Below, one piece after another: positions 1 to 8,570 of a stretch of DNA of 64,000 nt. Each line of letters opens with the position of its first letter. Positions within the stretch are counted from its first letter, which is position 1. Origin of the DNA: an uncultured delta proteobacterium (GTDB lineage Bacteria > Myxococcota_A > Polyangia > Polyangiales > Polyangiaceae); the NCBI GenBank assembly GCA_963841435.1, contig CAWJCS010000006.1, positions 1,696,001 through 1,760,000 on the forward strand, given 5' to 3'. The translations under genes were made by a program, and so were the position numbers. Below the pieces are notes generated by a model, which searched no databases, was not told the origin of the DNA, and was given only the letters and a program-made list of their open reading frames with translations.

Positions 1-2
1 TG

Positions 3-302
3 TTGGTGCTTTAAGTGGTTGAGGATGAGTAGGTGTTGTTCGCGACGTGTGTGTGTTAGGTTGAGGTTGAGTGGGATGTGTGTTTCTATTCGTAGATTTG
101 TACGACAACTTGAGTAGTGTTTGATGTGGGAGGTTTGGTGTGTGAGGTTTTTGAGGGGTATTGGGTTGATGTATGGGAAGATTGGTTGTGGTGTTACGTG
201 ATTCGCGTAGTGTTGGTATGTGTGGTGTTTGATTTGGTTTTGGGGTATTTACGTGGGTGTTGTGGTGTGTGGGTTGTTGATGTTGGTGCATTGGGAGGTT
301 GA
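3..302 (+). pseudogene. C-to-T converted relic of a hypothetical protein (5' end outside window)
   Basis: Back-conversion of this frame gives natural-looking protein (approximately AEDEQALFATRVRQAEAERDARFYSQIRTTTRAALDAGG...) with mostly G/T(C) third positions. The 3' end is uncertain because TGA could have been CGA. Confidence 0.45.
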
Positions 303-382
303 TGTGTGTGTATGTCGTGAGAGTGACGTTTGATTGAGTGGTGTTGTTTGGGTTTGAGAGTGAGGACATTTGAGTTGGTGGT

Positions 383-913
383 ATGAAGGGGGTATGTGAA
401 GAATATGAGACGTTTGTTTGCTACTGTTGTAACTTTACTTGAGTTTGAGTTGATGAGTTTTTGTGGTGGGTTGATTGGTATTTCGTTATTTGAGTTGTTG
501 AGTTTGTTACGTTGTGATTGTGAGTTTCACTTGAGATTTGTGTGAACTGTGGGTAGGGGGTGTTGATGAGAAGTTCGTGATGTATACGTGTAGGTTTTCA
601 TTAGTGGGTGATGTTGTTTTGGTGTGTTTTTTACGTTGATGGTAAGTACTGGTTCGTTGATGTTTGGTATGCGTAGGGCACGAGTTGGTGTGTTGAGTTG
701 TAGTGTTTGTTGATGTGTGAGAGGGAGATTGTTGAGTGTTGCTTTTTTTTGTGTGGTTGTAACGTGAATTACGTGGTGAGGTGTATGTGTGACGATGTGA
801 AGTGTGTGATTTTTGTGTTGCTTGTGTATTTTGTATGGGAGATTAAGTTTGATGCTGGATTGTGTAGTATTGTGTTTTTGATTACAAGACGTTGTAAGGG
901 GTGTGTTTTTTAA
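383..913 (+). pseudogene. C-to-T converted relic of a hypothetical protein
   Basis: ATG at 383. Back-converted reading is approximately MKGAREEHETLARYCRNLTRARADELLRWVDWYF...FYADGKYWFADAWHAQG...; internal indels are possible and the end is uncertain. Confidence 0.35.
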
Positions 914-1193
914 TTTGGGATATTTTTTTATTGGTTAGGGTGTTAAGGATGTTAAGTTTGTTGAGTATGTTGTGGTGTTGTTGATGGTGGTATTACTTTG
1001 AGTGAGTGTGTTGTGTGTTTGTTGTTTTTGATGTTTGTGAAGTTTTTGTTTTTGTTGTTTTGTTTTGTGTTTGTTGACGTTTCATTAGTGGGTGTTGATG
1101 TGAAGGTTGTGTTTTGTGTTTGTGGTGTTGTTGATTGGTATGGATTAAGAATGTCTTTGTGACGACGTTGATTGTTTTGACTTTTTAAGGGGT

Positions 1194-2480
1194 ATGTTGA
1201 TTTGTGTTTTGTTTTGTAAGGTTTTTTTTTACTGGATTAAGTTGTTTGTTGTGTGTGTTTCATTGTTTATGTTTATGTTGTTTTTGTTTTTATAAGTTTT
1301 ATGATTTGAGACGTGTGACAAGTACGTGCGTGTGTTAAGTTTTGTATGTTGTGCGTTGAACATGTGTTTGATTTTGAGTAGGTTGTGTTTTTATTAACGT
1401 TGTTGAGTACGTTGAGTGTTGTTTTGAATGTGTGAGGTTTTTGGTATTGTGTTGTTGTTTTATGAGTGTTGTTATTTTGAGTGTTTGTGTAATTTTTTGA
1501 TTTGTTTTTATTTCTTGGTGACGTTATTAAGTTGTATGTTTAAGATGTGTTTGACGTGTTGTTAATTGGTGAGGTTTGATTGTAGTTGAGGAGTAAGGAT
1601 GATGAGTTTGAGTTTTACTTGTGGTATAGTATTGTGTATATGTGTGTGACGATTTTTTGTGTGTTTTTTTTATATGTTGTGGAAGGATGAGTTGTTTTTG
1701 TAGAATAAGGTTGTTAAGATTGAGGTTTTGTATATTGAGTTGAGTGGTATAGTGTGTGTTGTGTTGTTGGATGTGTATATTGTATTTTTTGTTGTGTATT
1801 TGTAGGTTGATTTGTAGATTTAGTTTTTTGTGTTGTTTTTTTGTATGGTTGTAGGTTTTTGAGTTGTTGATTTGAATGTGTTTGATTGGATGGTGTTTTT
1901 GTTTGGTTTTGTTATTTGTATGTTTGTTTGGTGTAAGATGTGTAAGTGTAAGTTGTGGTTGTAAATTTTGGTCGTCCCCCACTCTGTCCGAGCGTTCCTC
2001 AAGGTCTGGCACGAGAACCAGGGGCAGCTGGCAACCGGCCCCGTGTTCCCGGTCCGCCGCGGCGAGCGGGCCGGTAAGGCAAAGAAGCGCTCGAACATGA
2101 GCTACGCGGACCGGCTACGACGGGAGCTGCTCCGCGCCAGCGTCTCCCGCCACGAGCTGCACCACGAAACGGCGAGCACCCTGCCGGTGGATTTCGACAG
2201 CACTCGACGGGCGTACGCGACCGCGCTTGCCCGCGTCGGCGTCAACGAGCAGACGGCCATGGTGCTGACCGGCCACACGGACCCGAAGGTCCACATGCGC
2301 TACGTCGCGAGCCTCGTCGGGGAGCTACCGGCCGCCGCCCTCCCGAGTTTCAGCACCGACCATGCTGAAACCCTCCGTCGAACCGCCAACAAGAATCACG
2401 ATTTGGCGATTTTTTCGGAGCGGGACACGGGACTCGAACCCGTGACCCCGAGCTTGGGAAGCTCGTGCTCTACCAACTGA
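1194..2480 (+). pseudogene. int: Tyrosine recombinase/integrase; 5' part C-to-T converted and with indels, 3' part unconverted
   Basis: Unconverted part: FDSTRRAYATAL (HxxR box) and LTGHTDPKVHMRY (H...Y box). Back-converted 1830-1970: VLLSRTVAGLRAADLNALDWTAF...RRKTRKRKPRPQTLVVP (catalytic Arg box and Lys). Core-binding-like SIAHMRATIFRVF...LWKDEL...NKVAK at about 1628-1720. Putative start ATG at 1194 after AAGGGG. Confidence 0.85.
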
Positions 2481-2491
2481 GCTAGTCCCGC
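2419..2491 (-). tRNA. tRNA-Gly (anticodon CCC)
   Basis: Reverse complement GCGGGAC-TAGCTCAGTTGGTAGAGC-A-CGAGC-TTCCCAA-GCTCG-GGGTC-ACGGG-TTCGAGT-CCCGT-GTCCCGC-T forms a full cloverleaf. It is followed by CCG rather than CCA. Confidence 0.97.
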
Positions 2492-2501
2492 GAACAAACC
2501 G

Positions 2502-2530
2502 AGCTTACCTCTCCTCGCGTTGGAAGCCAA
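2502..2530 (-). promoter_or_regulatory. Putative sigma70-type promoter of tRNA-Gly
   Basis: TTGGCT-17 nt-TAAGCT on the minus strand, about 10 nt upstream of the tRNA 5' end. Confidence 0.45.
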
Positions 2531-2619
2531 GGCTCCCCGGTTCTCGGGGGGATGGGGCCGCTTCGAGCCGCGCTTGACCGCGGGACGAGCCCTCCGCTAG
2601 ACACGGGCGAGCCCGAGCC

Positions 2620-2892
2620 ATGAAGACCTGCGTCATCGACTCCGTTTGCGAGTGTCAGGCCAAGCTCTTCACCGCCGTTGACGAGCAGCGGCACGTCGTG
2701 CGCGGTTGGGCGCGCTTGCGAGGCCGTGAACTCCCGGCGCCCGCGAACGCGCTCGGCGGCAAAGACGACACGTTCCACGTCGGCTTCAGCTGCCCGTTCT
2801 GCACGCGGAACACGTTGCGCTCGTTCCACTCGAGCGCGCTCTCGTTCAGCGAGCCGACGCCGAGCAAGGCGCCGCCGCCTTTGTCTCGTTGA
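2620..2892 (+). CDS. Small hypothetical protein, possible Zn-binding (CxC...CPFC)
   Basis: 90 aa ORF with GC3-biased codons and Cys pairs. Confidence 0.7.
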   Translation: MKTCVIDSVCECQAKLFTAVDEQRHVVRGWARLRGRELPAPANALGGKDDTFHVGFSCPFCTRNTLRSFHSSALSFSEPTPSKAPPPLSR

Positions 2893-2967
2893 GGAGCGGG
2901 GCTCGGATGATCCGCGCGCTCGCGCGGCCGAGCCGCTCGCCCGCGCCCTGACACTGGCGAGCGAGCG

Positions 2968-4509
2968 CTACCGTTCTGCCCAGAGCTCGCGGCCGACGAG
3001 GACCAGGCCGGCGACGAACAAAAGGCCGGCGACGAGGCTCGTCTTGATGGGCCCGAGCGAGAACACCTCGCCCGTCGACGACGCGTAGATGCGATCGAGC
3101 GCGGTGAGCGCGATGCTCGCGACGACGGCGCCGAGACCGGGCGCGAGCCTTCGCGCGAGCGACGGCGGCACGCTGGGCGCCGGCGTCGAATGGCGCTGGA
3201 CCGCTTGCTGCTCGCCCGGGGGCGCCTGGCCCGCCGCAGGCGCCGGCGGGAAGGACACGGCGAGCGCCGGGCTGCGCGCGCCGGCCGGGGGCGCCCCGGA
3301 GGCCCCCGAGGGCACGAGCGGGACTCGCTGGGACGTTGGGCTCAGCTCGAGGCGGGCGGGCGGAAGGCTCCCTGCCCCCAGGGGTGCGAGCGACCCTCGC
3401 TTGACGAGCTCGTCGGGCGCCACGTCGAGCGCGAGCGCCGCGCCGTGCCCGTCGGCACCGTCGAAATCGAGCTGGTGCACTCCGGGAAGCTCGAGCTTGT
3501 GCGTGCCGCTCGGCCGGCGCACCACGGGCACGAGGTCCGGGATCTCCGCGACGTTTGCCGCGACGGCGGTTGCCGGACGCTGAACGGCGTCGCGGAGCGC
3601 CTGCCAGAAGGCGCCGGCATCCTGGTAGCGGTCGCGCGGCGACACCGCGAGAGCGCGAACGAACACCGCTTCCACGGCATCGCCGACGAGGGCGCCGTGG
3701 GTGCGGGGCGTTGGACGGCGCTTTCGGTCGAGAACCTGCTGCATCACGGCCTGATGGGTCCCGGAGATGACGGGACGCCCGACGAGAGCCTCCGAGAGCG
3801 TGAGCGCGAGCCCCCAGACGTTGGTGAACGGGCCCGTCGTGCCGAGCTCCTTCGGCATCCATTGCTCGGGTGCGCCGTAGGCGGGGGTAAAGAGCGCCAC
3901 CCCGCTCGAGTCGGCGCCGACGCGCGTCGCGGCGCGCTGCACCTGCGCGACGCCGAAATCGAGGATCTTTACCGTGCGCTCGCCCGCGACGATCGCGACG
4001 AACACGTTCTCCGGCTTGAGGTCGCAGTGCACGATGCATTCGTCCCCCGCGGGCCCCTGAAAGTGGTGGGCCCGCGAAAGCGCGTGCGCGACGGGGTCGA
4101 GCAGCTCGATGAGTTTCTCGAGCTCGAGCGGCGGCCTACGCTCTGCCGTCCGCTTCTGAATGATGGCGTCGAGCGTCTCACCCTCGAGCCACTCGAGCAC
4201 CATGAACGGGACGAAAGCTCCCGTCGGTGTCGTCATGGCATCGACGTGCAGCGGGCGCACCACCGTGGAAAGACTGGCCGAGAGCCGGAACATCACCTCG
4301 GCCTCGGCGCGGAACTGCTCGAGAAAGACCGTCTGTTGCTGGCGCGCGAGGTGCTGCGGCACCTTGAGGCACTTCAGCGCGACCGGCGCGCGAAAACCGC
4401 CGTGATGCGCGCGGTACACGACGCCGAAGCCGCCCTCGGCGACGACGGATTCCACCTGATAAGCGGAAGCGACGACATGCCCGACGATCCCGAACCGGTC
4501 CGCGGTCAT
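2968..4509 (-). CDS. Hanks-type Ser/Thr protein kinase with C-terminal membrane segments
   Basis: EGGFGVVY, VALK, HCDLKPEN, DFG and YGAPEQ motifs; two hydrophobic C-terminal helices. Confidence 0.95.
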   Translation of the reverse strand: MTADRFGIVGHVVASAYQVESVVAEGGFGVVYRAHHGGFRAPVALKCLKVPQHLARQQQTVFLEQFRAEAEVMFRLSASLSTVVRPLHVDAMTTPTGAFVPFMVLEWLEGETLDAIIQKRTAERRPPLELEKLIELLDPVAHALSRAHHFQGPAGDECIVHCDLKPENVFVAIVAGERTVKILDFGVAQVQRAATRVGADSSGVALFTPAYGAPEQWMPKELGTTGPFTNVWGLALTLSEALVGRPVISGTHQAVMQQVLDRKRRPTPRTHGALVGDAVEAVFVRALAVSPRDRYQDAGAFWQALRDAVQRPATAVAANVAEIPDLVPVVRRPSGTHKLELPGVHQLDFDGADGHGAALALDVAPDELVKRGSLAPLGAGSLPPARLELSPTSQRVPLVPSGASGAPPAGARSPALAVSFPPAPAAGQAPPGEQQAVQRHSTPAPSVPPSLARRLAPGLGAVVASIALTALDRIYASSTGEVFSLGPIKTSLVAGLLFVAGLVLVGRELWAER

Positions 4510-4528
4510 CGGCCCCGTGACCTCGCCG

Positions 4529-6046
4529 TCAGGCGATGCTGATCCCTAGTTGGCGGCGGAGCTGGAAGTAGCGCTCGCTGCTCGCGAAAGCGAAGAGGTC
4601 CTTGGCTAGCTCTCCCACCCCTCGCTCCTCGGATCCGAGCAGGCCGAGCGCCGTCCCGAGGTCGTTGCAGAGCAGGAGCCCGGCGCGGCACGCCGTTTTC
4701 TCGGTTGCGAGCGCCCAACGCTGCAGGTTCGTGCGCCCACCCTCCTCGACGAAGCGCAGGAAGCACCCACGCAGGATGTCGATCTGGCCGGGCTCGAGCA
4801 GCGGCTGGATGGCGTTCGCGATGGGGGTCACGCGCTGCTTCATGTCGTCGGCGATCGGCAGGCCAGGGTTGCCGATCACGAGCGCCGCGAGGAACAGGTC
4901 CTCGAGGTCCAGGATCCCACCGAAGAGCGTCTTGACGTAGTGCTCGTTGCGGTACCAGCTAAGGTGTCGCCCCGCGAAGAACGCGTGCTCGAGCTGCGTC
5001 CTGCCGCTCAGCACGCGCTTGCCGATCACGGTCACGGGCGGGACGCCCGGCACGTGCTCGAAGCCCACGTCGCGATCGCGCTCGACGTAGATCGGCGGCG
5101 CCGCCAGTCCCAGGATTGCCGCCGCCCACGGAATCGCCCGCACGGCGGTCACGGTGGCCTTGGCGACGTCCTGCTTTTCGGCGGGCGCCGGCTGGTGAAG
5201 CTTGCCGTCGCGGCGCAGCGTCGTGACGCGACCGATCAGCACGGCGGGCGCGATCACGCTGAAGATCTGACCCGTGAGGACCTCCTCCTCGGGGTGGAAG
5301 AGCTGGTCGTACCAGGCGGACTGGGCAAGGCCCGCGCGCGGCGCGATGAGGGTCTCACTCTTGTGAGCCGCAAATTCCTCGGTTTCGGCGGGCGTCGCTG
5401 CGCCGAGCGCGACGAGGCACTGCGCGAGACACCAGGCGCGATCCTTGTCGCCGCGCGCCGCGTAGATCGCGTGGAGCTGGCGGTGCGCGTCGGCGTCCAT
5501 CGGGTTGCGGCGCACGCGGCGCCAGGCCTCATCGGGATCCTCGGTCGCGCGCGCCGCCTCCGCCTCGAGGCCGCTGAGGTTGACCTCGACGTTGATGGCG
5601 GCCTGAGCGCGGCGAAGCTCGTCCTCGAGCGCTACGATGCGGGCCTCGAGCTGCTCGATGCGCTTGAGCAGAAGCGCGCGCCCTGCGTCACCTTCGGCAT
5701 CGACGCGCAGCGGCACGAGCGACGCCGCCGGCTCTTCGTAGTGCTCGACGATCTGCACGTGGTGCCGCGTTTGATACGCGGCCACCATCGCCTGCTCGAG
5801 CCGCGCGAGGCGCCCCCGGTCGAGGCCGAGGTTGTGTGCGGCCTTCTCGAGGCGAGCGCGCTCCTCGGCGGTGATGATGCCGTCTTCGAGCACCTCCGCG
5901 AAGAGCTCTTCGTATTGCAGCTCGAGAGGCCCGAGCGCGAATCCGCCCGCGACCTCCCCTGCGGCGAAGCCCGAAAGATGCTCGAAGCTGTCGCGCCCGT
6001 CGGCGCCCGATGCAGGAACCGACGGTCCCTCCGCTTGGGTCGTCAC
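4529..6046 (-). CDS. Hypothetical protein with coiled coil, TPR-like segment and myxobacterial C-terminal domain
   Basis: 505 aa GC3-biased ORF; GTGA overlap with the upstream gene; ends SERYFQLRRQLGI, resembling the tails of myxobacterial large TPR proteins. Confidence 0.8.
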   Translation of the reverse strand: MTTQAEGPSVPASGADGRDSFEHLSGFAAGEVAGGFALGPLELQYEELFAEVLEDGIITAEERARLEKAAHNLGLDRGRLARLEQAMVAAYQTRHHVQIVEHYEEPAASLVPLRVDAEGDAGRALLLKRIEQLEARIVALEDELRRAQAAINVEVNLSGLEAEAARATEDPDEAWRRVRRNPMDADAHRQLHAIYAARGDKDRAWCLAQCLVALGAATPAETEEFAAHKSETLIAPRAGLAQSAWYDQLFHPEEEVLTGQIFSVIAPAVLIGRVTTLRRDGKLHQPAPAEKQDVAKATVTAVRAIPWAAAILGLAAPPIYVERDRDVGFEHVPGVPPVTVIGKRVLSGRTQLEHAFFAGRHLSWYRNEHYVKTLFGGILDLEDLFLAALVIGNPGLPIADDMKQRVTPIANAIQPLLEPGQIDILRGCFLRFVEEGGRTNLQRWALATEKTACRAGLLLCNDLGTALGLLGSEERGVGELAKDLFAFASSERYFQLRRQLGISIA

Positions 6047-7311
6047 GCCCCGCCCTGGCCGCCGTTGCCACCGCTGCCGCTGCCACCCGTGCCCGTCATG
6101 TGGCCGGCCGGACAGGTCTCGAGCGTGTCGGCCGCCGTCTCGCCGCTCTGCAGCGGGCGGCAGTAACCCTCGCGTCCGAAGATGTTGAGGATCTCGCCGG
6201 CGGTGTCGTCGATGCAGCTCTCACTCGAGAGCACGCAGTCGGCGTTGCAGTCGCACAGCGACCCGCAGATGCCGACGTTGCCCGCGCCGAGATCGCCCGG
6301 CGGCGAGAGGATCGTCGGGAACAGGCAGCCGGCGTCGGGCAGGCCCGTGCCGTCCCAGCCGCAGCCCGTGAACGCGGAGGAGAAGCTGCAGAACGCGGCA
6401 CAGGAGCCCTCGTTGCCCGTGCTGTCGGAGGGGACGCAGAATCCGTTGCAGGGATCGGTCGCGGCGTTGGGATCGCAGGGCGCGCCGATGGGCAACCCAG
6501 ACGGCTCGGAGTCGGTGCAAAGCCCCGTCGAAAAGTCACAGAACTGGCCAGACCCGCAGTCGAAGTCCCCGCCGCAGGTCGGGAGGCAGCCCGTGACGAT
6601 ATCGCCGCAGACCCGCGGCGCGCTCGTGCTGCACAGCTGACCCGAGAGGCAGTCGTCCGTCGAGGCGCAGCTCGTGTTCGTGGGGAGCAGGCCGAGCAGC
6701 GTGCACGAGAGATCGGTACGGGACTGACACTTCGGGACGCCCGCGCCCCCGGTGATGCAACCCTGCACGCAGTACGAGGCATTGGTGTCGAAGTCGATGC
6801 AATAGGCGTCATTCGAAAGCTCGAGGCACTGCGTGTCGGAGGTGCAAGCGCGCGTACAGAGCCCGCCCGCCGGGCCGCCGCCCGACAAGCCGTCGTCCAT
6901 CAGACAGGTCAGCATCGGGTCGTCGCAATCGGCCGTGGTGCTGCACGAAGCCCCGAAATTCGGGGAGCCGACGCTACCGCCCGTGCCACTCGTGCCGCCG
7001 CGGCCCGAAGTGCCGCCCGCGCCGCTCGTACCGCCGCCACCGAGGAGCCCGCCGCCCGAGCCCCCCATCCTGCAGGTGCACGTTCCGTTCGACTGCATGA
7101 CGCCACCCGGCCCCGAGGTCTGCGTGAGATCGCAGAGCGGCGTCAGGCCGTCGCAGCAGGAGCCGCTGCTGGACGAGTTCTTGACAGCGTAGCTTTCGCC
7201 TTCCTTCTTGCACGACGAGCCGCCGCCGGTCGCTTCGTCGCTACCGCAACTCGCGGTCGACAGCACGAACCCCGTGAGCATCAAAACAAGCGAGGCAAGT
7301 CCATTTCTCAT
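6043..7311 (-). CDS. Cys-rich secreted lipoprotein with Gly-rich linker (paralog A)
   Basis: GGAG RBS, signal peptide with TASC lipobox, many Cys. Confidence 0.85.
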   Translation of the reverse strand: MRNGLASLVLMLTGFVLSTASCGSDEATGGGSSCKKEGESYAVKNSSSSGSCCDGLTPLCDLTQTSGPGGVMQSNGTCTCRMGGSGGGLLGGGGTSGAGGTSGRGGTSGTGGSVGSPNFGASCSTTADCDDPMLTCLMDDGLSGGGPAGGLCTRACTSDTQCLELSNDAYCIDFDTNASYCVQGCITGGAGVPKCQSRTDLSCTLLGLLPTNTSCASTDDCLSGQLCSTSAPRVCGDIVTGCLPTCGGDFDCGSGQFCDFSTGLCTDSEPSGLPIGAPCDPNAATDPCNGFCVPSDSTGNEGSCAAFCSFSSAFTGCGWDGTGLPDAGCLFPTILSPPGDLGAGNVGICGSLCDCNADCVLSSESCIDDTAGEILNIFGREGYCRPLQSGETAADTLETCPAGHMTGTGGSGSGGNGGQGGA

Positions 7312-7409
7312 CGTGAAATCTCCCGGGGCGCGGCCCGCCCTCCTAGTGTGGTCGTCCGACCTCCACCGAGGCAAGCGCTTTCGTGTGCCATTCGCCCCTG
7401 CCCCGCCCA

Positions 7410-8570
7410 TCACGGACACGCGCCAATCGCGTCAGCCTCGGACTCCCCGCCGAGGAGCGGGCGGCAATACCCCGCGCGGCCCCAGATCGCCAAGACCTCC
7501 CCACCGCTGTCGTCCACGCAACGGTCGTCCGCCGCTAGACAGTCGTCGTCGCAGTCGCACAACGCGCCGCACAAACCCACGTCGCCAACCCCAACGTCCT
7601 TCGACAGGCGCGTCGCAAACAAGCAGGCGGAGTCGGCCGGTAGCGAGCCGTCCCACCCGCAGCCGATGGCGCGCGGAGCGAGCGTGCAGAAGGCGGTGCA
7701 CAAACCTTCGTCACCGCCGTTGCTCGTTGGCAGGCAAAAACCGTTGCACTGATTGGCCATGGCGTGCGGATCGCAAAGCGCTCCCACGGGTCTTCCCGAG
7801 GGCGGTTCGGGGACGCACAGTCCACTCGCGAGGTCGCAGAAAGTTCCGGTGGCACAGGCTGCGTCGCCCCCGCAGCTCGGCAGGCAGCCGGTCACGGCCT
7901 CGCTGCAGCGGCGGGGCTCCATCCCCATCGAGCAGAGCTCGGCAGGTCCGCAGTCTTCGGGGCGCTCGCACGCGCGGTTCGTCGGGATCAACCCGAGCAA
8001 GCCGCACGCCATGTCGATGCGCTCGTGGCATTTGGGCTCTCCCGCGACACCCGTCGTGCAACCCTCGAGGCATACGGAGCTCCTGTGCTCGTGGTCGAAC
8101 GAGACGCAGCGGGCGCCCTCCGCCACGTTGCGACAGTCATCGTCGGTGCGGCACCCGAGCGTGCAGAGCCCGCCGCCGGGGCTCGCTCCCGCGAGCATGC
8201 GCCCAGAGCTAGTGACGCAGTCGAGCTCGGCCGCGCAGTCCTGTTCGTTCTGGCACGCGTCGCCGAGCCGTCCGTCACCCGCCATCGAGGGCGCGCCGCC
8301 CGCGTCACCCCCGCCCGCGGGCACGCCCGCCGCGTCGCCGGCAGCCGCCCCGTCCCCACCCGCACCCGCGCGCCCCCCAGGCTCCACACCCCCCACGGCG
8401 CTGGTGCCAGCCGTCCCGGACGGTGCGCCGGCGCCGGCCTGACCCCCGGCGCCCCCCAGGGCGACGCCGCCCGCCTTTTCCACAGGAACGTCGTCCGCCA
8501 TGCAGGCGCCCGCGAGCCAGACAGCAGCGAGCCCGGCAATCGCAAAGGCCTTCGAACCGGCGCGCTTCAT
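7410..8570 (-). CDS. Cys-rich secreted lipoprotein with Gly-rich linker (paralog B)
   Basis: Signal peptide with LAGAC lipobox; Cys-rich domain collinear with paralog A. Confidence 0.85.
   Translation of the reverse strand: MKRAGSKAFAIAGLAAVWLAGACMADDVPVEKAGGVALGGAGGQAGAGAPSGTAGTSAVGGVEPGGRAGAGGDGAAAGDAAGVPAGGGDAGGAPSMAGDGRLGDACQNEQDCAAELDCVTSSGRMLAGASPGGGLCTLGCRTDDDCRNVAEGARCVSFDHEHRSSVCLEGCTTGVAGEPKCHERIDMACGLLGLIPTNRACERPEDCGPAELCSMGMEPRRCSEAVTGCLPSCGGDAACATGTFCDLASGLCVPEPPSGRPVGALCDPHAMANQCNGFCLPTSNGGDEGLCTAFCTLAPRAIGCGWDGSLPADSACLFATRLSKDVGVGDVGLCGALCDCDDDCLAADDRCVDDSGGEVLAIWGRAGYCRPLLGGESEADAIGACP

Follow-up and report, generated by a model that had tools for sequence, protein, structure and literature searches.

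A cytosine-depleted tract in a tRNA-adjacent island of a Polyangiaceae genome is most likely a sequencing artefact

The DNA analysed here (a stretch of 64,000 nt from an uncultured soil member of the Polyangiaceae, called the window below) opens with nearly two kilobases that are almost devoid of C on one strand, and raises the question of whether a mobile element has been rewritten by a cytidine deaminase or whether the sequence is an error of its reading. The original prediction inclined to the first answer. If true, this would give a first indication that bacterial mobile DNA undergoes APOBEC-like hypermutation close to saturation, a bacterial counterpart of the APOBEC restriction of mobile DNA; it would also suggest an ssDNA deaminase, as yet unknown and with hardly any context requirement, that would be interesting for base editing. 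We conclude that the tract is most likely a sequencing artefact and not a real feature of the genome.

A C-to-T image of native coding DNA in a variable island

The depletion itself is as first described: 66 C were counted at positions 1-1972, where ~676 would be expected because C makes up 34.3% of the genome. The tract is larger than had been noted, starting 526 nt before the window, and the suspicion that window position 1 is a contig end was mistaken, since the window begins at C6:1696001, inside the contig, and the tract continues upstream to C6:1695474. The features around it are as follows (window positions unless marked C6, for the contig):

C6:1695474-1697972 (window -526 to 1972), + strand: main C-depleted right arm, delimited by composition
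1972..1973: sharp change from converted to normal sequence; it falls within the integrase gene, with 445 nt left to the tRNA end, and away from the attachment site
1182..2480, + strand: tyrosine-recombinase (integrase) gene; relatives' proteins align from residue 1 at 1182
2417..2491, - strand: tRNA-Gly gene (anticodon CCC, ARAGORN), the integration target
2418..2462: attR, 45 nt that exactly repeat the 3' half of the tRNA in direct orientation
C6:1686623-1686667 (window -9377 to -9333): attL, the partner of attR, 100% identical over 45 nt

The right arm retains 75 C in 2499 nt, 9 of the 75 upstream of the window, with G held at 0.328 and T raised to 0.476. Only the + strand has been converted, and the spectrum of T-run lengths is that of native DNA after conversion of C to T in silico. 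At 1972/1973 normal composition is regained within ~10 nt. No second region of the same kind was detected when the whole 7.78 Mb genome was scanned for composition in 300-nt and 200-nt windows; the remaining matches were short, with an absolute GC skew of 0.4-0.67.

What the tract encodes can be read from the integrase gene, which from ~1182 to 1972 is interrupted by stops and legible only when each T may stand for T or C; from 1973 to 2399 it is intact, its open frame continuing into the tRNA gene with a stop that ends at 2480. The in-frame decoding of the catalytic Arg box that had been proposed holds up, as 36 of the 45 codons before the junction fit the closest relative with T read as T or C (only 16 of the same 45 are identical as read), and the TGA at 1860, interpreted earlier as a former Arg codon, is aligned with an Arg of that relative. 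In alignment columns a relative's C corresponds to T in the window in 207 of 244 cases, while the purines are conserved in the converted and unconverted parts at 97/128 and 58/74 positions for A and at 185/290 and 100/142 for G. The tract is a C-to-T image of native coding DNA: the view that it represents GC-rich coding sequence with C read as T on one strand is upheld, and foreign AT-rich DNA is ruled out.

The intact 142 aa of the integrase score 23.9 bits with PF00589, under the Pfam cut-off of 27.1, and the domain is present in 81/81 of the integrase homologues (E<=1e-20). This homology, the adjoining tRNA gene and the direct repeat, at the distal end, of the 3' part of the tRNA mark the gene as the tyrosine recombinase of a tRNA-integrated island. 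Its best matches reach 71% among metagenome contigs (4 loci), 62% among genome contigs (2 loci), 75% in genome G176 and 82% in a protein collection (81 matches); no near-identical copy of the element was found in these public collections of metagenome contigs, genome contigs and proteins.

The tRNA gene lies 17 nt from the end of the integrase homology, and attL and attR bound an island of 11.8 kb that holds all of the C-poor blocks. A sister genome (G018) has the same site empty and genome G013 carries a different 5.5 kb insert there, which together with the att repeat identifies a structurally variable site. The site is an integration hot spot, at which the island forms a variable insert; in its genome the island is unique, with no paralogue found in either normal or three-letter space. 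That every aberrant block lies within the mobile island, and that the integrase gene appears as a clean one-strand C-to-T image with its purines intact, speak for a heritable hypermutation, in which a strand exposed as ssDNA would have been attacked by a nearly context-blind cytidine deaminase and copied into duplex, leaving a dead chromosomal element. We consider such an origin quite unlikely, and attach equally little weight to its elaboration, in which transfer or rolling-circle replication, for example, would have exposed the strand and the mosaic would have arisen by recombination with an intact copy. The conversion stops within the integrase gene instead of at an attachment site, and the genome is without another converted tract, both of which count against it.

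Homopolymers, frameshifts and the surviving cytosines

Further blocks of aberrant sequence lie upstream of the right arm:

C6:1694929-1695473: homopolymers T191 then A354, which split the C-poor tract
C6:1694385-1694900: C-poor left arm, 516 nt
C6:1691300-1692600: partly C-poor block upstream of the left arm

Every C-poor block is inside the right 7 kb of the island, and 1.7 kb of normal DNA separates the partly C-poor block from the left arm. G remains at 0.31-0.34 in all aberrant blocks. Within C6:1691300-1691700, which is GA-rich and of low complexity, C is reduced by 0.181 as A rises by 0.136 and T by 0.048, so that C has been lost mainly to A; this counts against a deaminase, because deamination cannot turn C into A. 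The C-poor tract is, in addition, fused to homopolymer junk. The only other A/T homopolymer longer than 15 nt in the genome is a block of A1573 and T445 on contig C2 and, with just two such blocks in 7.8 Mb, it is unlikely (~0.002 by arithmetic) that one would fall in the 6.7 kb tract by chance. Stretches of at least 100 nt that are free of C or G occur in 32/251 assemblies of the family; the 12 loci fetched from these assemblies consisted of poly-A, poly-G/C, (CA)n, (AT)n, GA- or CT-rich repeats and two short complex blocks. In five other assemblies the counts of such stretches are large and asymmetric. The fusion with homopolymers and the loss of C to A in one block are both awkward for a heritable process.

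The integrase gene provides a second class of evidence. Its converted 0.8 kb shows 2-7 frameshifts relative to four relatives and 6-8 relative to four closer ones, an indel load of ~0.8%, and its unconverted part of 430 nt shows 0. The sites recur as follows:

1249..1682, + strand: recurrent frameshift sites at ~1249, 1296-1324, 1389-1407, 1433, 1504-1522 and 1655-1682

Judged from the proteins of eight relatives, most are deletions of 1-2 nt, several of them beside T runs, and 0 frameshifts were found in eight control alignments to genes of relatives that had been converted in silico. The tract carries read-level indels, and their restriction to the converted part of one and the same dead gene is a further point against heritable mutation. 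In an unconverted part of the island, an AAA_25 primase/helicase-like gene is split by the loss of 1 nt at a short run of C. Long coding-like ORFs cover 71-80% of the flanking chromosome and 0-20% of the unconverted island parts, a low cover that could also reflect the short genes of mobile elements.

The C residues that survive show an effect of context. C is kept at 22% of A-Y sites, 2.7% of G-Y sites and 2.4% of Y-Y sites, with ~97% conversion outside ApC, and the purine G behaves as the pyrimidines do when it is the 5' neighbour. Retention is graded by context and is highest (7/13) in TA-Y-GTG; a methyl-protected motif was considered and rejected, as no motif is fully protected. Neither TC nor CC is favoured for conversion, the dinucleotide preferences of the known enzymes being replaced here by the mere sparing of ApC. 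A3G prefers 5'-CC. In the accessible text of the sources consulted a preference for 5'-TC is given for DddA and A3A/B and a weak one for a pyrimidine for SsdA (PMC7901873, PMC12494967).

A context effect that spares ApC is what an enzyme might leave behind. One can accordingly picture a small integrative element deaminated near-completely on one ssDNA strand by a processive, ApC-sparing cytidine deaminase and persisting in some or all of the population, an account to which we give only a slender chance; its corollary, that the homopolymers and indels arose secondarily, from difficulties in sequencing an abnormal T-rich template, seems just as doubtful. The extent of the conversion is far above the mutagenesis known for bacterial deaminases, as far as the accessible text on it extends (PMC7901873).

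Origins of the tract

An enzymatic source was sought in the genome. The original prediction had seen no deaminase gene in the window, and this extends to the 95% complete genome, in which no toxin-type gene (DddA-like, Toxin-deaminase or DYW-type) was found by searches that had no positive control, which may count against a heritable event. PF14428, PF14424 and PF14432 gave 0 matches in the genome and were silent in the controls too; PF14437 gave four, and the same model also matches in 12/14 control genomes. A deaminase toxin could originate in another organism.

When the three C-poor blocks were compared by BLAST with both genome strands in three-letter (C=T) space, neither an unconverted copy nor a fold-back partner was found. 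The absence of a second, unconverted copy from the assembly is in keeping with a heritable change. When relatives' elements were compared in the same three-letter space with loose scoring, homopolymer and low-complexity matches dominated. Three soil short-read runs of one study were also compared with window positions 1-6000 at 80% likeness; one of them held the organism at a depth of 2-3, with contigs identical to the flank at 2809-2976, 4618-5047 and 5181-5331, and at that depth 1-2400 was left uncovered in its converted and unconverted forms alike.

A purine/pyrimidine 48-mer search detected no G>A twin of the tract elsewhere in the assembly. This one-sidedness, the read-level indels, which are consistent with a single molecule, and the accuracy of A, G and the T-run lengths, which suggests bases that are truly T-like, would all suit a real molecule that is not inherited: one strand of soil DNA deaminated from C to uracil, faithfully read by a strand-resolved long-read platform and then assembled. 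The deamination could have been chemical or enzymatic, as in a dying intoxicated cell or in extracellular single-stranded DNA. Both this origin and these circumstances appear unlikely to us. The C-to-A block and the T191/A354 homopolymers are left unexplained, and the uracil-DNA glycosylase of the repair mix used in common ligation library preparations would destroy a strand in which uracil occurs hundreds of times. In their context, too, the bacterial deaminases compared are different, as far as the accessible text of their descriptions goes.

The sequence might instead have been made by the assembler or polisher and be present in no read, for instance through a corrupted base encoding or a consensus called where there was no coverage. 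The accessible text of a preprint reports that long-read metagenome contigs from metaMDBG and metaFlye contain regions of >5 kb to which none of the input reads is homologous, and also variable regions backed by one read (10.1101/2025.04.22.649783); the read-less regions, and the resemblance of the pure A and pure T runs to filler, lend software-made sequence some support. We nevertheless hold it to be very unlikely, as the tract retains the full information of a real integrase gene, and a graded context effect and read-like deletions come more easily from a read. The flip of a bit in a 2-bit base code was rejected by reasoning, since setting or clearing one bit would alter A or T, both of which are unaltered.

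We favour, as the probable explanation, an aberrant read that was kept unpolished and lies outside the inherited genome of the organism. A faulty, uncorrected read is preferred because the tract wraps homopolymer T and A and carries read-level errors; the error load and the junk lie in and beside the tract, unlike the rest of the contig. The assembly, with 6 contigs, 7.8 Mb and 95% completeness, looks like one of the long-read metagenome type. A strain-variable island of 11.8 kb next to the tRNA-Gly gene would have left few reads available, and a single aberrant read, or a very small number of them, might then have served the assembler as the path of the contig. Such a read would contain episodes in which C went uncalled and was replaced mostly by T, in one block mostly by A, and would also hold the stall-like run of T191 and A354. 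Normal reads would differ from the converted stretch at ~31% of positions and for that reason could not be aligned to it, so that polishing would have left the stretch at raw-read accuracy; its sharp edges would be the points at which alignment of reads becomes possible again. Platform, low coverage and the origin in a single read are inferences, as would be any physical cause for the dropout of C. Polishing assisted by a paralogue, as a source of the normal segments of the island, was rejected on the ground that the island lacks a paralogue.

Several observations do not sit easily with an aberrant read. It would have to be otherwise accurate, because A and G are as conserved as in the unconverted part and T-run lengths match converted native DNA, and a generic failure of signal does not obviously predict such accuracy; all of the aberrant blocks lie within a mobile element, which is what a biological origin predicts; and the context effect among surviving C is enzyme-like. 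In the literature searched, to the extent of its accessible text, no description was found of a read artefact in which C>T is near-total and limited to one strand. The natural APOBEC- or RIP-like hypermutation that had been inferred is nonetheless countered by the homopolymer fusion, the C-to-A block and indels confined to the converted part of the gene, and further by the second homopolymer block and the frequency of similar junk in assemblies of the family. A better fit is the artefact that had been offered as its alternative, in which a single aberrant read stands at a poorly covered place, with the correction that this place is a variable island and not a contig end.

As an artefact, the tract would mean that public long-read MAGs can hold three-letter sequence that is kilobases long and still bears information, as well as giant homopolymers, inside contigs of several megabases and with a preference for variable islands. 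A simple scan of composition can flag three-letter tracts before biology is built on them.

Comparison with known systems

The footprints of APOBEC3, DddA and SsdA resemble the tract in a strand-coordinated C>T confined to a mobile element and in new stop codons, including that at the catalytic Arg codon; the purines are untouched. In C6:1691300-1691700, however, C is lost mainly to A. The tract differs from them in that ~97% of its C is converted, against a minority there, and in its homopolymer junk, its C-to-A block and the absence of a TC or CC preference. For survivors of DddA, the accessible text gives few and unclustered SNPs (51 SNPs across 11 isolates, and 88 across 7; PMC7901873), in contrast to the near-saturation here.

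Bisulfite and enzymatic methyl-seq share with the tract a near-complete conversion of one strand and the T-run spectrum of DNA converted in silico. The tract differs in lacking a discrete protected motif, its surviving C being graded, and in having no G>A twin in the assembly by the 48-mer search. Libraries of these kinds are not normally assembled into genomes. RIP of fungi likewise inactivates mobile elements through C>T transitions. It depends on a duplication and mutates the two strands at CpA sites, whereas the tract has no duplicate, is converted on one strand only and has another context.

The remaining comparison is with the zero-coverage or single-read regions of long-read metagenome assemblies, for which the accessible text of the preprint gives no composition of its examples and no three-letter C>T image (10.1101/2025.04.22.649783); in our case it is low coverage that we infer. 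Within the compass of that text, the tract is like these regions in its variable site, its kilobase size and its sharp bounds, and also in the assembly junk that accompanies it and the indels in its genes.

Composition and decoding of the C-depleted tract

The original prediction of a C-poor stretch in a GC-rich genome is confirmed: window positions 1-1972 hold 66 C against ~676 expected from the 34.3% C of the genome (7.78 Mb in 6 contigs, 69% GC, rated 95% complete), with G unchanged at 0.328 and T at 0.476, and normal composition is regained within ~10 nt of the 1972/1973 boundary. The tract does not lie at a contig end, the setting that had been supposed for an artefact, since the depletion extends upstream to C6:1695474 on its contig, C6 (the window is C6:1696001-1760000; negative positions lie upstream).

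The intact frame at 1974-2399 encodes the C-terminal part of a tyrosine recombinase, of which full-length relatives measure 430-495 aa; within window 1965-2480 this integrase frame stays open up to the tRNA gene, which it overlaps by 60 nt on the opposite strand, and ends at 2478-2480. In an alignment of the closest relative's gene with the window that treated C and T as equal, a C of the relative corresponded to a T of the window in 207/244 columns of the converted zone, and A and G were conserved about as well there as in the unconverted zone. The last 45 codons before the junction fit the relative's residues at 36 positions if T may be C, compared with 16 as read, and the TGA at 1860 lies opposite an Arg of the relative, so that the earlier decoding of the integrase Arg box was right. 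In its T-run lengths the tract has the same spectrum as in-silico-converted native DNA. Taken together, the C-to-T columns, the conserved purines, the codon fit and the T-run spectrum show the tract to be coding DNA of native type in C>T image.

The island at tRNA-Gly(CCC)

Every C-poor block lies in the right 7 kb of an 11.8 kb island that is delimited by two 45-nt repeats and is unique within the genome.

Features of the island
C6:1686623-1686667, exact 45-nt copy of the tRNA-Gly 3' half
C6:1691300-1692600, partly C-poor block
C6:1694385-1694900, left arm, C-poor, 516 nt, C 0.068
C6:1694929-1695473, T191 then A354, upstream of the right arm
C6:1695474-1697972 (window -526 to 1972), right arm, 2499 nt, 75 C
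Window 2417-2491, minus strand, tRNA-Gly(CCC)

In the sister genome G018 the phosphofructokinase gene of the left flank lies ~0.9 kb from the tRNA, an empty site, and another relative, G013, carries a different, unrelated ~5.5 kb insert at the same tRNA-Gly(CCC); within this genus the site is therefore a hot spot of integration, and the island is an accessory insertion. In G176, of the same genus, tRNA-Gly(CCC) harbours a related element of 15 kb that has the closest integrase (75%) and, in the first lines of a three-letter comparison, both ends in common with the island. Neither a converted nor an unconverted near-identical copy of the element turned up in the metagenome-contig, genome-contig and protein collections searched.

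Besides the integrase, the island contains an AAA_25 primase/helicase-type gene (Pfam 8.8e-19; PHROGs primase/helicase families) at C6:1688415-1689445 (window -7586 to -6555), in its unconverted left part; compared with five homologues, this gene has lost 1 nt at a short C run and is thereby divided between two frames. The share of sequence covered by long coding-like ORFs is 71-80% in the flanking chromosome as against 0-20% in the unconverted island segments, a difference that short mobile-element genes could also explain. Both observations count against an inherited tract.

Homopolymers, missing C and frame shifts

The T191/A354 run is joined to the C-depleted tract on either side, and such runs are not plausible as bacterial DNA. 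Genome-wide, the only other giant homopolymer, and the sole region comparable to the tract, is a second block on contig C2:

C2:851351-853368 (6351-8368 of the locus L002), A1573 then T445, inside a 1.2 Mb contig

With two such blocks in 7.8 Mb, a 6.7 kb tract would rarely contain one by coincidence. The C2 block directly follows a tandem array (L002 5833-6326) of 3.3 copies of a 148-nt unit, and its flanks are of normal composition. By eye, the repeat unit contains a tRNA T-arm-like string; ARAGORN and Rfam called no tRNA there.

Separated from the left arm by 1.7 kb of normal DNA, the partly C-poor block differs in kind. At C6:1691300-1691700 (window -4700 to -4300) C changes by -0.181, A by +0.136 and T by +0.048, a loss of C more to A than to T, and the sequence is GA-rich and of low complexity, with (AG)n of at least 4 units or A runs of at least 6 at 7.5 per kb vs 0.05 per kb genome-wide. 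G remains at 0.31-0.34 in every aberrant block. The common feature of these blocks is missing C, not C turned T, which deamination does not explain.

In a frameshift-aware protein-to-DNA alignment with T read as T or C, the converted part of the integrase needs 2-7 frame shifts against four relatives and 6-8 against four closer ones, at recurrent sites (~1249, 1296-1324, 1389-1407, 1433, 1504-1522 and 1655-1682); these are mostly 1-2 nt deletions, several beside T runs. The 430 unconverted nt of the same gene need none, nor did the relatives' genes converted in silico in 8 alignments by the same method. The load in the converted part, ~0.8% indels, is at the level of a single modern long read, not of a consensus.

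The prediction of one-strand C>T conversion of a mobile element thus stands as to the image and is not supported as to heritable hypermutation, given the homopolymer fusion, the C-to-A block and the indels. A heritable hypermutated element seems to us quite improbable on these grounds, together with the AAA_25 split, the island ORF coverage and a conversion of ~97% outside ApC (complete over the last 320 nt), compared with the few, unclustered SNPs of DddA survivors (51 in 11 isolates and 88 in 7, in the excerpts consulted of PMC7901873).

Of 251 assemblies sampled from the family, 32 have stretches of 100 nt or more that lack C or lack G; this genome is one of them (others are G102, G166, G209, G185, G257, G081 and G154). 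On inspection, twelve such loci contained poly-A (~300 and ~250 nt, well within a contig >5.6 Mb), homopolymers of G or C (115-505 nt), (CA)n and (AT)n, repeats rich in GA or CT, and two short blocks of complex sequence. A fragmented assembly of the family has, at L039 1501-1622 (G108:C438), a sharply delimited stretch of 122 nt that lacks G yet is complex in sequence (A 55, C 45, T 22); the start of a Ser/Thr-kinase-like gene follows directly, and the surroundings are 65% GC. Either G>A conversion of a short patch or a natural leader rich in A and C could account for this stretch. In some family assemblies the matching positions run into the thousands and are divided very unequally between the strands (3139 vs 438 in G166); these may hide further converted tracts.

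Origin of the tract and known deaminases

We consider it most likely, and probable overall, that an aberrant long read remained unpolished where the island, a variable region, had thin coverage; the sequencing platform, this coverage and what physically caused the C dropout are our inferences. In long-read metagenome assemblies, according to excerpts of a preprint (10.1101/2025.04.22.649783), some variable regions are represented by one read, and regions >5 kb lack homology to any input read; zero-coverage regions are an error class in excerpts of the nanoMDBG paper (PMC13087279). Sequence made by the assembler itself would be very unlikely here. The one public run with this organism, a soil metagenome of short reads at shallow depth, has contigs that leave window 1-2400 uncovered.

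A truly deaminated single molecule is unlikely, even though purines and T-run lengths are accurate, as in an otherwise good read, for which T-like bases in the molecule would be the simplest account. The surviving C also has a graded context that spares ApC, being retained at 48/216 A-Y, 13/476 G-Y and 14/572 Y-Y sites (Y, C or T) and most often in A-C-G, for which base calling that depends on the k-mer is as good an explanation as an enzyme preference. The surviving C form no discrete protected motif, which argues against methyl-protected bisulfite-type chemistry. Searches of this genome, run without a positive control, found no DddA-like, Toxin-deaminase or DYW-type genes, and its MafB19-deam matches are of a kind that also appears in 12/14 control genomes. 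The retained-C context of the tract differs, moreover, from what excerpts of PMC7901873 and PMC12494967 describe for the known enzymes, namely the 5'-TC context of DddA and the slight -1 pyrimidine preference of SsdA.
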